DNA from: Patescibacteria group bacterium
Lineage (GTDB): Bacteria; Patescibacteriota; Patescibacteriia; CAIXNZ01
Assembly: GCA_028714455.1 (NCBI GenBank)
Contig: JAQTMG010000001.1
Span: 568-64,567 of the forward strand
Length of the DNA: 64,000 nt
Direction: 5' to 3'
How positions within the stretch are numbered: the first letter of the stretch is position 1; each line of letters begins with the position of its first letter. Shown here one piece after another: positions 28,297 through 61,002 of this stretch. The position numbers were made by a program, and so were the translations under genes. The notes under the pieces were generated by a model, which searched no databases, was not told the origin of the DNA, and saw nothing but the letters and a program-made list of their open reading frames with translations.

Positions 28297-28645
28297 TGTC
28301 AAATCCTCCTTTGTCGCGCTTAGCGACTCCAGTGGCTTGCCCCTTGCTTTGACTTTCAAGGCCTAAGGCTTGCCAAGTATGCTTTCATACTATCATACTT
28401 TTATAATTTTGTCAATGATAACGATTCAAAAATTAGCTAATATTAAATAAATAAATTTTTTAGCTATCTTTAGACAATAAATCCAGGCAAAGTTGACTAA
28501 GACCAAAATTTTTGCTAAACTATATTATAATATAGCTCTGGGCTCGGAGCTTTGAGCTTAGAGCTTTTTAAATAAAACATTCTAAAATTGTTCCGAAGGG
28601 ATGCCTTTGGCATAAATTGTAAATTGAGAATTGTAAATTGTTTCA

Positions 28646-28711
28646 GACTCCGTAGTTTCCGCCAGAGGCGGACCACGAATCGAGCTTTGCTCTGGTTCGT
28701 GGCAATGGATA
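28646..28711 (+). pseudogene. 5' tRNA-Arg fragment interrupted by a 45-bp double hairpin
   Basis: GACTCCGTAGTT|insert 28658-28702|CAATGGATA versus intact GTCCTCGTAGTTCAATGGATA. Confidence 0.8.
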
Positions 28712-28728
28712 TCAAAAAATTAACACCT

Positions 28729-28800
28729 GTCCTCGTAGTTCAATGGATAGAACAAGAGCCTTCTAAGCTCTGGATTGGGGTTCGATTCCTCACGGGGACA
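28729..28800 (+). tRNA. tRNA-Arg(TCT)
   Basis: Cloverleaf, AGAGC-CTTCTAA-GCTCT anticodon arm, GGTTCGATTCC. Confidence 0.93.
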
Positions 28801-28805
28801 TCAGT

Positions 28806-28857
28806 GGTTCTCGGCCAAAGGCTGATCCGCCTCTGGCGGAGATTCCTGGCGGGGTCA
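28806..28857 (+). pseudogene. 3' tRNA fragment interrupted in the T loop by a 30-bp double hairpin
   Basis: GGTTC|TCGGCCAAAGGCTGATCCGCCTCTGGCGGA|GATTCCTGGCGGGGTCA. Confidence 0.7.
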
Positions 28858-28906
28858 TAAGGAGATTCGAGTTTCGTGCAAGAGCAAGAGAAATAAAAAT
28901 AAAAAT

Positions 28907-43228: not shown

Positions 43229-43408
43229 AAGGGCTTTTAAACAAGCCCTCAATTATCAGTGGCGTGGACCCATATATCTCCAGGTCTGGAATGAACCTTT
43301 GGAGAAACGGCGCTAGCGTAAATAACCAGATGGTTAATTTATCTTTGCGCCAACCCTGTCTTATGACGGGCGCCGACATTCCTTGCTATGGAATCTAAAC
43401 CACTGACA
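43229..43408 (-). ncRNA. candidate structured ncRNA (~150-180 nt)
   Basis: TTGACA-17-TAAGTT promoter (43442-43414), closing stem TCAGTGG/CCACTGA, four internal hairpins, terminator AGGGCTT/AAGCCCT-T5. Confidence 0.5.
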
Positions 43409-43484
43409 AAATTAACTTACCAAAGACTCATTAAACTGTCAAGAATAAAAAAGTCCTTTGATATTATCGCGGGACTTGGGCGGC

Positions 43485-43628
43485 TTAGGGCCGATAGAGA
43501 CCGGCCGTGAGCAAATAGGTATAATCGCACAGAACGGACTGCCACAGCGGCCTTGGCCAATGAGACCCGAAAGAGGTTATTGATGGAGCCGTCGCAAAAC
43601 CCTTGAACCGTTGCCACAGTTTTTTCAT
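43485..43628 (-). CDS. small hypothetical protein (47 aa)
   Basis: AAGGAGG SD; MKKLWQRFKGFATAPSITSFGSHWPRPLWQSVLCDYTYLLTAGLYRP; own promoter and terminator. Confidence 0.55.
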   Translation of the reverse strand: MKKLWQRFKGFATAPSITSFGSHWPRPLWQSVLCDYTYLLTAGLYRP

Positions 43629-43835
43629 GAAAAGTCCTCCTTTACTTTGTTGATGTTAATATATTGAAATTAATTCGATAAGTCAAGCTTGACTTTTGTT
43701 ATATTTTAGCTTATTATAATAGTAATCCCGAAAGGGATTTTGTTTTTTGAGAATAGGTATTAGGTAATAGTTATTAGGAAATGGAATAAATTTCTTATCG
43801 CCAATACCTATTGCCAAATACCCAATATCCAGCAC

Positions 43836-43986
43836 ACCGCCTTCGTCCCGAACTATATCTCGCTTTGCTCAATAAGTTCGGGATAAATCTAATGGTTAGC
43901 CATAGTCCGCCGAAGCACGAAGTGCGAAGGCGGAGACACCGCGCTTTTCCGCCAGAGGCGGACCCGCCTACGGCGGGCAATGCGGT
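43836..43986 (+). pseudogene. 5' part of tRNA-Glu split by three hairpin insertions
   Basis: Removing the inserts gives 42/44 identity to the first 44 nt of tRNA-Glu at 44258. Confidence 0.85.
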
Positions 43987-43995
43987 TAAATAAAT

Positions 43996-44250
43996 ATGTA
44001 TTATTTATATATTTTAAAAAGTTTAAAAGACGAAGGATATTATATTGGAATTACAGATAGCACCCTAGATCGACTCAAGGAACATAATCAGGGCAAGGTA
44101 AGATCGACAAAAAGTCGCAGACCATTTATCCTAAAATATTCTGAAAATTATAATACAAAAACTGAAGCAAGAGAAAGAGAGATTCAGCTGAAAAGAAACT
44201 GCAAAATCCGCAAAGAACTTTTACTAAAACTGAAATTTAGTGTTAAATAA
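43996..44250 (+). CDS. small GIY-YIG nuclease
   Basis: YYLYILKS...YYIGIT....RLKEHNQG....T..RRP......E......A..RE..LK. Confidence 0.93.
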   Translation: MYYLYILKSLKDEGYYIGITDSTLDRLKEHNQGKVRSTKSRRPFILKYSENYNTKTEAREREIQLKRNCKIRKELLLKLKFSVK

Positions 44251-44257
44251 ATATCAC

Positions 44258-44329
44258 GCCGCCATCGTCTAATGGTTAGGACACCGCGCTTTCAATGCGG
44301 TAATCGGGGTTCGATTCCCCGTGGCGGTA
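44258..44329 (+). tRNA. tRNA-Glu(TTC)
   Basis: Cloverleaf, CCGCG-CTTTCAA-TGCGG, GGTTCGATTCC. Confidence 0.95.
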
Positions 44330-44578
44330 CTTGTCCACAGTTGTCATTCTTTCAGTTGAATTTTTCCCCCGAAAAATTCTAACATCATTTGCCAGGCAGT
44401 ACTATTAAAAACCCCGCGACTATCTCGCGGGTTTTTTATTCTTGACAAAATTAAAAAATTTTGTTAAAATAATCTATCGTTCATTGATAAAAAAGACTGT
44501 TTAAACAGTTTTAATAAATATAAATAAAAGATTTTGTGATGGGTGCCAAAACGCATTCCTAGCCATAAGGAGGAACTG

Positions 44579-46933
44579 ATGCTGAATTTAACTGCCAAAT
44601 CCGAAGGTAACAGACCGCCCTTACCTATTGCCGATTTCAGACAAAAAATAATTCGGACCGTTACCGAAAATCAAGTCACGATCATTACGGCCGAGACAGG
44701 CGCCGGCAAAAGCACGCAAGTACCCCAATATCTGTTAAGCCAGGGTCTTTCAGTAATCATCACCCAGCCACGGCGCATAGCCGCACGCACTATTTCCGCC
44801 CGAGTAGCCCAAGAATACGGCTGCGAACTCGGCACGGTCATCGGCTACCGCACCGCCTTTGAGCGACGCGATTCGCCGGAGACCAGATGTCTCTTTTGTA
44901 CTGATGGCCTAGAACTCGTGCGCGAACTCCACTATTCCAGACTGCCCGATGTTCTGATTATTGATGAGGTGCACGAGTGGAATCTCAACATCGAGACGCT
45001 GGCGGCCTGGTCAAAGAAGCAACTGGCTGAAAATCCCGGCTTCAGGGTCGTGATTATGAGCGCGACGCTTGAAGCGAAACGACTCTCGGAATTCTTTAAC
45101 AACGCCCCAGTCATCTCCGTGCCTGGCGTGCTCTACCCGATTGAGGTTAGATTGCCCAAATTTGGCGACCTAATCGGCGAGATAGCCGATCTGGCCGGAG
45201 AAAAACGCAACGTGCTGGTCTTTCTACCCGGCAAGCAAGAAATTCGCAAAATGATCGAGGAGCTCGAGCAGCTGAATCTTGAGGCAATTATTCTGCCCTT
45301 GCACGGCGAATTGGAGCCGGACGAACAGGACAAAGTATTCAAAAAATATCCCTTGCCTAAAATTGTCGTCGCCACTAACGTGGCTCAAACCAGCCTCACT
45401 ATTGAGGACGTCGACGCAGTCGTTGATTCTGGGCTTGAGCGACGTATCGAAACAAGGGACGGCATTGAGGGCCTCTATTTAAGAAGGACTTCCGAAGCCG
45501 ACGATACCCAGAGAAAGGGTCGCGCCGGCCGCTGTCGCCCTGGCATCTACATCAACTGCTACGACGGCCAAGATGAACAGCTTGAATTCCCAAAGGCGGA
45601 AATACAACGCGTCCGACTTGATCAGATGGTTTTGCGTCTGGCCATCATCGGCTTTGACGCAACCGAGCTGGAATTTTTTCACCAGCCGAAAAAAGCCATG
45701 CTGCTTGAAGCCAAAAAGTGTCTACACGCACTAGGTGCGATTGACGCAAACGAGAAAGTAACGCGCATCGGCCGAGAAATGGCTCATCTACCAGTCTCGG
45801 TCAATTTCGCGCGCATGATCATCGAAGCCGTCAACCTGAACGTGGTCGGCCCGGTGATTACCATTGCCGCCTGTCTCGAAGTTGACGGCATCACCGACAG
45901 CAAAAAGTTGGCCCTCTGGCAATCGCTCACCGAAGAAAATGAATCAGATTTACTCGCGCAACTTGATGTCTATAACAAAGCCATCAATTTCAGCGACAAA
46001 GAAGAACTGGCAGCCAGAGGCATTCGCGTGAAATCGTTTTATCGAGCCATAGAGATTCGCAGAAAGCTTTGCGAGACTCTAATTAACATGGCCAGGGGCA
46101 AAAGGATCTTTATTGATTTCAACTCTCCCGGCGACAAGCAAAAAATCTTGAACGCCTGCATCCCTGGACTGGTCGACCACCTCTATCGGATCAACGACTA
46201 TGGCCTGTGCAAAAACGGCGATCAGATAAATAGAGTTCTTAACCGAAATTCAGTGCTTGGCGGAAAAGGGGGCTGGATCGTCGGTCTTCCTCTGGACCTA
46301 GAAACCAGAAACAGGGACGGCATCGTGACCAAAAATCTGGTTACCATGGCCACCCGAGTTGATCCTTCGGTTCTGGCTGACCTGGCTCCGCACCTTTTCA
46401 GCGTCAGAAAGGAGATTTGTCTTTCGCCTTACGGAGGATTTTTGGTAATCGAACACTTAAACTTCGGCTCCCAAGAATTACCGCCAAGGGAAAAGCAAAT
46501 TTTTGACTGGAACGAACTAATAAGAGAACATCTGCCCGCGGACATGACGGCAGAGCAGCTAAAGAACCAATTCATCAGAGAACAACTAGAATCGGAAAAC
46601 TACTTTAGAACACGCCGTTTTGAAGAAAGACCGATTCAAGAAACCTTGGACATAATCAAGCCATTTGAATTTGGCAGGGATCCCACAACCGGCGAAGCGC
46701 TTAAGGCGTTTCCTGGCTTTGCGAGAAAATTCGATTCCGCCGTTTATTATGAATTGAAATATTATTTATCAAAAGAAGAGGCGGACAAATCTACTGCCGA
46801 AGCGCTTGGTTCCGGCAAATGGACCAAAAAGGATAAACGCTGGTGGGAATGTCCGGATGGACACACCACCAGAGCGTCCAAAAACGCCCCCGAAGTCGTC
46901 TGCGATACCTGCAGAGCACGACACAAGATCTAA
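44579..46933 (+). CDS. HrpA/HrpB-like DEAH-box helicase with C-terminal putative Zn ribbon
   Basis: AETGAGKST, TQPRR, DEVH, MSAT, QRKGRAGR; C-terminal CPDGH...CDTC; AAGGAGG SD. Confidence 0.9.
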   Translation: MLNLTAKSEGNRPPLPIADFRQKIIRTVTENQVTIITAETGAGKSTQVPQYLLSQGLSVIITQPRRIAARTISARVAQEYGCELGTVIGYRTAFERRDSPETRCLFCTDGLELVRELHYSRLPDVLIIDEVHEWNLNIETLAAWSKKQLAENPGFRVVIMSATLEAKRLSEFFNNAPVISVPGVLYPIEVRLPKFGDLIGEIADLAGEKRNVLVFLPGKQEIRKMIEELEQLNLEAIILPLHGELEPDEQDKVFKKYPLPKIVVATNVAQTSLTIEDVDAVVDSGLERRIETRDGIEGLYLRRTSEADDTQRKGRAGRCRPGIYINCYDGQDEQLEFPKAEIQRVRLDQMVLRLAIIGFDATELEFFHQPKKAMLLEAKKCLHALGAIDANEKVTRIGREMAHLPVSVNFARMIIEAVNLNVVGPVITIAACLEVDGITDSKKLALWQSLTEENESDLLAQLDVYNKAINFSDKEELAARGIRVKSFYRAIEIRRKLCETLINMARGKRIFIDFNSPGDKQKILNACIPGLVDHLYRINDYGLCKNGDQINRVLNRNSVLGGKGGWIVGLPLDLETRNRDGIVTKNLVTMATRVDPSVLADLAPHLFSVRKEICLSPYGGFLVIEHLNFGSQELPPREKQIFDWNELIREHLPADMTAEQLKNQFIREQLESENYFRTRRFEERPIQETLDIIKPFEFGRDPTTGEALKAFPGFARKFDSAVYYELKYYLSKEEADKSTAEALGSGKWTKKDKRWWECPDGHTTRASKNAPEVVCDTCRARHKI

Positions 46934-47123: not shown

Positions 47124-47618
47124 ATGACGCTTAACACAATATTAGTAAAATTAGCCAAAATCAGCCAAAAATTTATTGAAAAATCTGTTTTAATCGCACT
47201 TATTTTTGCTATATTATGGCAGTTTGCCCTCCCGAGATTAACATCTTTGGCCGCTTTTAGTCAGGCCGAAGCAGCCAATCAGCAGATTCAGGGCTTAATC
47301 GCCGAGCTAGGCAAACCAAGGGTAGTTACTGTGCCTGTGACGGCTTACAATAGCTTGCCAAACCAGACAGACAGCACCCCGTGTGAAACCGCCAACGGCT
47401 TTGATCTCTGTGAAAATAACAGACAAAACGTCATCGCCGCCAACTTCTTGCCTTTTGGCACAAAAGTCAGATTTCCCGATTACGACCCAAATACCATCTA
47501 TACTGTTCAGGACAGAATGAACGCGCGCTACGCTTATCGCGCCGATATCTGGATGAAGACTAAGGGCGAGGCATTTACCTTTGGCTTTCGCAATCTGAAA
47601 ATGGAAATTTACGAATAA
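47124..47618 (+). CDS. 3D-domain cell-wall protein
   Basis: VTAYNS...QTDSTPC.TANG, AANFLPFGTKV, V.DRM, DIW. Confidence 0.85.
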   Translation: MTLNTILVKLAKISQKFIEKSVLIALIFAILWQFALPRLTSLAAFSQAEAANQQIQGLIAELGKPRVVTVPVTAYNSLPNQTDSTPCETANGFDLCENNRQNVIAANFLPFGTKVRFPDYDPNTIYTVQDRMNARYAYRADIWMKTKGEAFTFGFRNLKMEIYE

Positions 47619-60669: not shown

Positions 60670-60735
60670 GCCCTCGTAGTTTCCGCCAGAGGCGGACCAC
60701 GAATCGAGCTTTGCTCTGGTTCGTGGCAATGGATA
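60670..60735 (+). pseudogene. 5' tRNA-Arg fragment interrupted by the same 45-bp double hairpin as at 28658
   Basis: GCCCTCGTAGTT|insert 60682-60726|CAATGGATA. Confidence 0.8.
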
Positions 60736-60752
60736 TCAAAAAATTAACACCT

Positions 60753-60824
60753 GCCCTCGTAGTTCAATGGATAGAACAAGGGACTCCTAAGCCTTAGATG
60801 GTGGTTCGATTCCTCCCGAGGGCA
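60753..60824 (+). tRNA. tRNA-Arg(CCT)
   Basis: GCCCTCG/CGAGGGC stem, CTCCTAA loop, GGTTCGATTCC. Confidence 0.9.
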
Positions 60825-61002
60825 TTAAATTGTGTATAATTGGCCAAGATAAAAAAGGGGCCAGCCCAGATACAAGTTTGTGTGTAGGCCTAAGAAAATG
60901 GGCCTGCCCCGATAAAAGTTTATGTGAAAAATAGTTTTATGCATTGTTTGTATTGCGTACGAAAAAATACGCTTCAAACATTGAGCACACAGACTTTTAT
61001 CG

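Follow-up and report, generated by a model that had tools for sequence, protein, structure and literature searches.

Why should a bacterial genome keep a broken copy of a tRNA gene directly before the intact one, with a small nuclease gene in between? The locus that raises this question lies in a window of 64,000 nucleotides (all feature positions below are coordinates in this window, and all features are on the + strand) from the genome of a Patescibacteria group bacterium (G000; 893,211 bases in 16 contigs). From 5' to 3', it consists of a 5' piece of tRNA-Glu split by hairpins, a small GIY-YIG ORF and an intact tRNA-Glu(TTC) gene (44258..44330), the sole TTC gene detected by ARAGORN in the genome, the cassette measuring ~420 bp. 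The broken copy comprises four segments corresponding to nt 1–12 (43836..43847, at the ancestral tRNA position), 13–22 (43890..43899), 23–35 (43935..43947) and 36–44 (43978..43986) of tRNA-Glu. When concatenated, they form 44 nt with 42/44 identity to the 5' end of the intact gene, the two differences being substitutions at acceptor-stem positions 1 and 7. The segments are separated by inserts of 42, 35 and 30 nt, placed after tRNA-Glu positions 12, 22 and 35. Insert 1 (43848..43889) is a weak hairpin of the CCCG(A/C)AC family (−9.4 kcal/mol as RNA, −5.0 as DNA, with a boundary ambiguous by 2 nt) followed by an 8-nt unpaired tail, and has relatives at tRNA-Asp, tRNA-Thr and others. Insert 2 (43900..43934) is a 29-nt GC-rich hairpin with a 6-nt unpaired head, its site near 22|23 being reused in other tRNA-Glu fragments. 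Insert 3 (43948..43977), a 30-nt double hairpin made of two 15-nt units, interrupts the anticodon between positions 35 and 36 without target duplication, and 13 such elements are found genome-wide. The final segment leaves a tail of 7–9 nt 3' of this last hairpin. The ORF that follows (43996..44250) encodes a protein of 84 aa matching the Pfam GIY-YIG family PF01541 (5.8e-14; 52.6 bits for a cut-off of 22.6), in which Y5, Y16, G18, R26, H30 and E62 are conserved.

A sigma-70-like promoter with a 10/12 match to the consensus is located at 43689..43717, where it aligns with the promoter region of two cassette-free sites (L084, L085), while a terminator-like hairpin is found at 44413..44431. To judge from the sequence, this promoter, which belongs to the ancestral locus of tRNA-Glu, would transcribe the fragment, the nuclease ORF and the intact tRNA together as one RNA. 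The pieces being collinear and one insert lying in the anticodon loop, it could be imagined that splicing removes the inserts and that the broken copy functions as a split or intron-containing tRNA, or else as a regulatory RNA. However, the copy has no 3' half of its own, the only one being that of the intact gene standing 3' of it, its acceptor stem carries substitutions, and the inserts vary between relatives. Moreover, when the locus was searched against Rfam, the intact tRNA alone scored above the cut-off and no intron matched. Splicing of the inserts is unlikely, and a functional RNA of this type is, in our opinion, very improbable.

That the locus is an artefact assembled from GC-rich repeats is hardly credible. 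The runs do contain the 30-nt hairpin in abundance, from other organisms (depth 350–700), but a single contig in each of two runs (X1 and X2) crosses 43300–44328 with zero differences, and an equal layout with different sequence is seen in many other genomes. This allays the concern about misassembly raised in an earlier note on this DNA, although X1 and X2 are possibly the source samples, which makes this a re-assembly check rather than an independent occurrence. No excised or circular form of the cassette was seen in the contigs of four runs. One joint of 44026 to 44262 is present in X2 (depth 3.6, side 32), its intervening letters are undefined and it may stem from another organism.

The age of the two copies can be read from close relatives, a comparison that the earlier note had advocated. 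Two genomes of the same genus (G001 and G002) have empty sites, where a tRNA-Glu identical over 73/73 nt is found without fragment, hairpin or GIY-YIG gene. The filled and empty alleles have the same tRNA but differ in their leader. Since the promoter and leader of the empty sites align with the DNA 5' of the split copy in G000, the 5' half of the original gene survives as this split copy. Consequently, the cassette sits between this old half and a rebuilt tRNA gene. In the wider family, the cassette is found at tRNA-Glu in G006, G008, G012 and G013 (at a CTC gene in the last), and is absent from the Glu loci seen for G001–G005, G010 and G011, with G010 displaying a split fragment alone. In the filled loci that were compared, the fragment matches the tRNA of its own host and, where the anticodon insert is present, the match extends to the anticodon stem 5' and 3' of the hairpin. 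A 13-bp direct repeat, which the earlier note had viewed as bounding the ORF, is exact at 43985..43997 (sharing its first 2 nt with the relic and overlapping the start codon) and at 44242..44254 (spanning the last codons and the stop), and is present in four copies in G000 when 0.26–0.43 would be expected. It is nonetheless specific to this locus, being missing from the empty sites and from every locus fetched from other genomes, which rules it out as an element end or a target-site duplication. Within G000, the 13-mer also follows two paralogous hairpin-split tRNA-Gln fragments (C3:34047 and C8:16469), 7 nt past the hairpin. Further 3' in the window, an HrpA-like DEAH helicase gene (44543–46933) stands between tRNA-Glu and an ORF at 47124. 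It looks like a second insertion, since a gene whose N terminus resembles that of ORF 47124 lies directly 3' of the tRNA in G001 and G002.

The association of small GIY-YIG genes with split tRNA fragments, proposed in the earlier note from this one locus, is borne out by surveys conducted from both sides. From the tRNA side, 131 genomes of the class were searched with the tRNA alone, which gave 118 matches, of which 90 were fetched, representing 88 distinct tRNA-Glu loci. These were scored using a split-fragment detector that fired on 8/555 shuffled tRNAs. Among the 87 loci left when G000 is excluded, five have both a GIY-YIG gene and a split fragment, three have the gene only (one of these, L177, is split on inspection), eight have the split fragment only and 71 have neither. 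Split fragments are thus enriched beside adjacent small GIY-YIG genes (5/8 loci, versus 8/79 without such a gene; Fisher p = 0.0015, a value that overstates significance since kin are not independent), contrary to the lack of enrichment that would have spoken against the note's proposal. Adding 23 loci, picked partly by cassette similarity, brings these four classes to 12, 3, 10 and 86, respectively. From the gene side, PF01541 matches are found in all 14 genomes of the family (111 in total, 5–14 per genome), and 78 loci contain 80 distinct small GIY-YIG ORFs. As many as 42/80 have a tRNA at ≤350 nt, with which every one of them is co-oriented, and 24 of these 42 have a split fragment, while 1/80 is in an rRNA gene and 37/80 are elsewhere. 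By comparison, 55/870 ORFs and 16/192 small ORFs in G000 are as close to a tRNA, as are 1/12 UvrC loci and 0/33 loci of Y1 transposases (drawn from 77 matches). In a GTDB set, 21/83 small GIY-YIG genes are tRNA-linked, 14 of which are at split tRNAs. When 20 of the non-tRNA loci were inspected, seven were found to lie behind tmRNA and one behind a tRNA that ARAGORN had missed. The tmRNA-following genes (L147, L152, L155, L234, L251, L255 and L259) form a clade with hairpin arrays. Related tRNA-adjacent genes are also found in records titled Pirellulales (L009), Omnitrophota (L027) and Balneolaceae (L063), with split fragments in the first two; the range of such cassettes may exceed the CPR.

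Hairpins were catalogued at 266 tRNAs, a set in which Glu and GIY-selected loci are over-represented, giving 102 distinct split junctions. Insertion sites recur near tRNA positions 12–13, 21–23, 35|36 and 55–56. The 30-nt doublet inserts without duplication, 11/19 times at TT|CA. In its 23 distinct variants, each of 12 positions is paired in 21–23 of the 23, with compensatory changes. Its first loop is purine-rich and its second pyrimidine-rich, so that a similar end is shown by both strands. With the boundaries used, its central bases do not mirror the flanks (the centre is AC in nine cases and AT in six, while the right flank is unchanged). In G000, 22/56 hairpin elements are found no more than 400 nt from a tRNA, a zone amounting to 3.4% of the genome (four elements in a shuffled genome), and 18/46 tRNAs were called split (two of these probably via a nested Ser locus), of which 3/18 have a GIY-YIG gene within 350 nt. 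This indicates that the hairpins are tRNA-enriched and mostly non-autonomous. The earlier note had hairpins accumulating in tRNA copies, which holds as an enrichment but not as a specificity, since the remaining elements are seen in rRNA, intergenic and coding DNA. Examples are found in the duplicated 5' end of a 16S gene, in a duplicated piece of a further sequence at C12:2048 and, on our reading of the sequence, inside an apparent dnaJ-like glycine-rich coding stretch (C8:4087).

REP/REPIN elements likewise combine very small tagged palindromes, doublets in inverted orientation and non-autonomous copies with a nuclease gene nested among them. The hairpins could be REP/REPIN-like sequences, moved by a Y1 transposase (RAYT), by another enzyme acting in trans or by template switching, the GIY-YIG gene being a passenger at fragile sites. 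The inverted twin units and tagged hairpins do resemble REPINs, matches to Y1_Tnp are found in 14/14 family genomes, a GIY-YIG gene is missing from the 350 nt around 15/18 split tRNAs of G000, which also counts against the selfish-cassette reading given below, and fold-back copying could mechanically yield compensatory changes. G000 itself encodes five Y1 transposases and one reverse transcriptase, either of which could act in trans; the latter is a lone reverse transcriptase domain within a 477-aa frame (C3:84440-84919). However, Y1 loci are not found near tRNAs, and hairpins are present within 400 nt of 3/33 Y1 loci (0/5 in G000), compared with 20/42 tRNA-linked GIY-YIG loci. This control is imperfect: hairpins are likewise found at 2/12 UvrC loci and 4/37 non-tRNA GIY-YIG loci, and closeness to a tRNA is a confounder. 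In addition, a passenger would show neither the fixed spacing nor the inverted ends, the latter in a sister clade, that are described below. We regard this explanation as distinctly unlikely. The RAYT partner of REP/REPIN elements is a Y1 transposase, an HUH tyrosine enzyme, whereas here it is a GIY-YIG hydrolase, Y1 genes are not at these sites and the inserts enter essential RNA genes. REP/REPIN elements with RAYT are the subject of PMC3116915, PMC2817692 and PMC3733652.

The geometry of the fragments bears on the relation between hairpin and nuclease. In 37/46 5' fragments, the tail past the last hairpin is ≤10 nt long, when 19.1 would be expected for uniform placement, a null that ignores site preference and kinship. 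The same is seen for 15/22 long 5' fragments (4.9 expected), and the excess weakens to 8/15 for long single-hairpin 5' fragments (3.8 expected, P = 0.017). Conversely, 21/23 3' fragments start 5–12 nt ahead of the first hairpin. The gap between hairpin and ATG is 12–30 nt in 16/22 loci, and in 36/42 the distance from the stop codon of the nuclease gene to the tRNA ranges from −21 to +25 nt. The cassette also amplifies in tandem, three copies following one another 5' of an intact tRNA-Gln in G012 (L260). Pieces of 3' tRNA split by hairpins likewise form tandem arrays at G000 C3:44940-45145, L081 and L003, with units of 68 nt, 146 nt and similar.

There are no terminal inverted repeats or target-site duplication around ORF 43996–44250. 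In a sister clade, by contrast, an 84-aa GIY-YIG ORF lies between terminal inverted repeats of 13–21 bp in unrelated contexts (L005, L008, L010, L012 and L014), and, judged by eye, the same is true of L011 and L015–L017. Several of these loci adjoin DnaA-box-like words. G000 has an 87-aa GIY-YIG ORF with inverted ends inside its 23S rRNA (C5:50590-50915), and copies of these ends without the ORF are found at C1:184215 and C9:2284. In two further inverted-end units in G000 (C1:72950-73180 and C4:65920-66190), an intact tRNA-Ile(GAT) and an intact tRNA-Ser(TGA), respectively, lie within a unit that splits an older copy in the anticodon arm, which reads as a replacement tRNA carried as cargo.

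The nuclease itself is minimal. In a predicted model (pLDDT 95.9), the nuclease fold fills the whole 84-aa chain as one domain, and neither this model nor fold comparison reveals a separate DNA-binding domain. The nearest proteins are UPF0213 by sequence, and UPF0213, HIGLE and Slx1 by fold (PDB 1zg2, 1ywl, 7wme and 7cq2), while I-TevI matches with an E of 2.2, far below the Slx1-type folds. UPF0213 and Slx1/HIGLE enzymes are uncharacterised or have housekeeping roles, and are not known to belong to mobile cassettes. The closest relatives of the 84-aa protein are mostly from records titled Patescibacteria. The catalytic Tyr/Tyr/Arg/His/Glu residues are conserved among 32 sequences. NCBIfam has no family for the protein, the Atlas returned generic GIY-YIG clusters alone, and a scan of IMG/VR gave one 12-residue match and no phage carrier at the sensitivity used. 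In a quick tree of 169 rows, the protein falls in an all-Glu group of 12 rows with a support of 90, which is not firm, and its neighbours are Glu-linked proteins, encoded beside TTC as well as CTC genes. A single Glu-specific clade was considered and is not firm either, as the group split in two in a 65-row tree including 11 of the 12 rows, and eight further Glu-linked proteins fall outside it. The alignment has only ninety columns and resolves little beyond the separation from NTS-linked proteins discussed below.

These features bear on whether the protein is a homing endonuclease, which would cut cassette-free tRNA-Glu genes as double-stranded DNA, gene conversion then copying the cassette, with the hairpins as unrelated latecomers in the defunct 5' half. 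This would resemble SegB of phages T4/T6, which, according to the available texts (PMC2330249, PMC13096335), is encoded among tRNA genes, cuts tRNA genes, homes and amplifies them, its cuts being tied to recombination and to tandem amplification of gene and tRNA. The nuclease gene is optional, with a cognate empty allele in G001 and G002, and nuclease lineages follow the tRNA type (four changes of the Glu label on the tree, versus 19.2 in shuffles). However, the intact tRNA being identical to those of the empty sites, the filled allele would not be immune to cutting. Furthermore, one catalytic domain of 84 aa leaves no room for a DNA-binding domain, the fold is remote from I-TevI, and both the short tails and the fixed hairpin-to-ATG spacing are left unaccounted for. 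SegB is a phage enzyme with a 27-bp double-stranded site, and those texts, as far as they were available, mention no hairpin inserts or split relic, in contrast to a bare catalytic domain on a bacterial chromosome. The CPR offer another comparison, GIY-YIG ORFs in rRNA genes of similar bacteria, which are likewise non-intron inserts in RNA genes and belong by our tree to the same protein group (through the 23S copy in G000, L161). In the available text of PMC11270868, these are judged to lie outside homing spread, no mechanism is offered, and tRNA, hairpin and palindrome are not mentioned. Homing is, on this evidence, unlikely.

The closest precedent is Ssn (cd10448). According to the available text of Chenal et al. 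2025 (PMC11893778), Ssn proteins are single-domain GIY-YIG nucleases of ~90 aa (range ~80–110 aa, within which our 84 aa fall) with conserved Tyr, Tyr and Glu, encoded in an IS-like layout beside short hairpins that also occur alone genome-wide. SsnA binds its own hairpin in single-stranded DNA only and cuts a few bases upstream, ignoring double-stranded DNA and RNA; the mobility of Ssn is put forward there as a hypothesis. The main text of that paper, as available, does not mention tRNA, CPR or Patescibacteria. Despite these likenesses, our protein is in another clade, with other hairpins, and genes of its kind are sited in tRNA, tmRNA and rRNA genes with partial duplication. Using four NTS-adjacent proteins from 135 IMG/VR loci as stand-ins for SsnA, we found 25–33% identity over 53–75 aa. 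The query and the NTS-linked proteins are on opposite sides of a branch with a support of 99, and their union in one clade is rejected (AU p = 0.015). The strict SRM/NTS motif has no match at the query flanks and none at 163 other GIY-YIG loci, including those grouping with the NTS-linked proteins, and is therefore non-discriminating here. In G000, a separate Ssn-like gene (C2:161783-162120), 34–40% identical to NTS-linked proteins, lies between NTS-like hairpins missing the strict SRM pattern, and Ssn thus appears, from sequence likeness, to reach the CPR. An SsnA-like mechanism for our protein is borrowed by analogy, the groups being apart. In its proposed way of working, the system is like Ssn/NTS and REP/RAYT, yet its nuclease lies outside the Ssn clade and its partner is not a RAYT; with SegB, it has only its address in common.

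We consider it moderately probable that the locus is a selfish, minimal nuclease–hairpin cassette. On this reading, the predicted role of the nuclease is to recognise its partner hairpins by binding them in single-stranded DNA, which it would cut at a distance of a few bases. By analogy with SsnA cutting beside NTS, the enzyme would first nick single-stranded DNA ~4–10 nt from a hairpin. Repair of the nicked ends, in incoming transforming DNA or at a replication fork, would then paste hairpins, or a hairpin plus the gene, into loop-rich targets such as TT|CA. ComEC and DprA, both present in G000, would offer a route for single-stranded DNA. A clean insertion in a single-copy tRNA would be lethal, and the survivors would be those outcomes that duplicate part of the gene, the old 5' half becoming a relic that gathers more hairpins (here inserts 1 and 2). 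The two 5' copies of the tRNA would finally serve as direct repeats, through which host recombination may delete, amplify or transfer the cassette. Hairpin relics without a nuclease would be non-autonomous, produced in trans. If an element with two-fold symmetry were cut in the manner of SsnA on one strand or the other, both classes of fragment would result, with their short tails, and the short tails after the last hairpin are, by the same analogy, indirect support for cutting beside the enzyme's own hairpin. A pairing of one enzyme with one hairpin is not established, since three unlike types of insert are present within one fragment.

The same parts might instead serve the host, tRNA-promoter-driven nucleases and hairpin tags acting to restrict incoming single-stranded DNA or to guard tRNA integration sites. 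SsnA lowers the integration of NTS-bearing DNA in Neisseria according to the available text of PMC11893778, ComEC and DprA are present, and the catalytic residues are conserved. However, the patchy distribution in one genus and family, the decayed copies with stops and frameshifts, and the tandem arrays fit selfish turnover, and we hold such a domesticated function to be improbable. No support was found for the repair system envisaged in the earlier note. Returning to the selfish cassette, we propose tentatively, as a bolder form with appreciable doubt attached, that GIY-YIG nucleases of 80–90 aa themselves mobilise their own gene and hairpins of 19–50 nt via cuts next to these hairpins in single-stranded DNA, rebuilding the essential single-copy tRNA, tmRNA and rRNA genes that they break. 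They would constitute a class of mobile elements with no known transposase, integrase or reverse transcriptase. If true, few autonomous elements known would be smaller, and single-stranded DNA cutters with new specificities would be available in large numbers.

The layout itself is real and widespread, recurring in many ultra-small bacteria. Integrative elements are also known to regenerate tRNA genes, a duplicated piece of tRNA restoring the target, but the cassette has no integrase, measures ~0.4 kb and has hairpin-tied breakpoints, and it is often the 5' half that is displaced. The earlier note knew of no description of this architecture. None was found for the tRNA-splitting nuclease–hairpin layout in the literature searched, most subscription papers being beyond reach, but hairpin-linked single-domain GIY-YIG nucleases have a close precedent in Ssn, to judge from the available text of PMC11893778. 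The spread of very small palindromes in bacteria is only partly understood, for those moved by Y1 transposases. The cassette would account for broken tRNA copies, mistakable for prophage attachment scars, at ~1/3 of the tRNA genes in this streamlined CPR genome. Since the locus offers both a filled and an empty allele, a substrate defined to 30 nt and a prediction of where the cut should fall, the question of spread can be tested directly with oligonucleotides; the locus also points to a predicted second clade of minimal single-stranded DNA nucleases as tools.

Within the window, the 5' fragments upstream of tRNA-Arg(TCT) and tRNA-Arg(CCT), at 28640–28880 and 60670–60825, share an identical 45-nt insert. 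In G000, a tRNA-Pro(TGG)/tRNA-Gly(TCC) pair is present in two copies, at C1:5470-5642 and C1:72230-72388, 67 kb apart.
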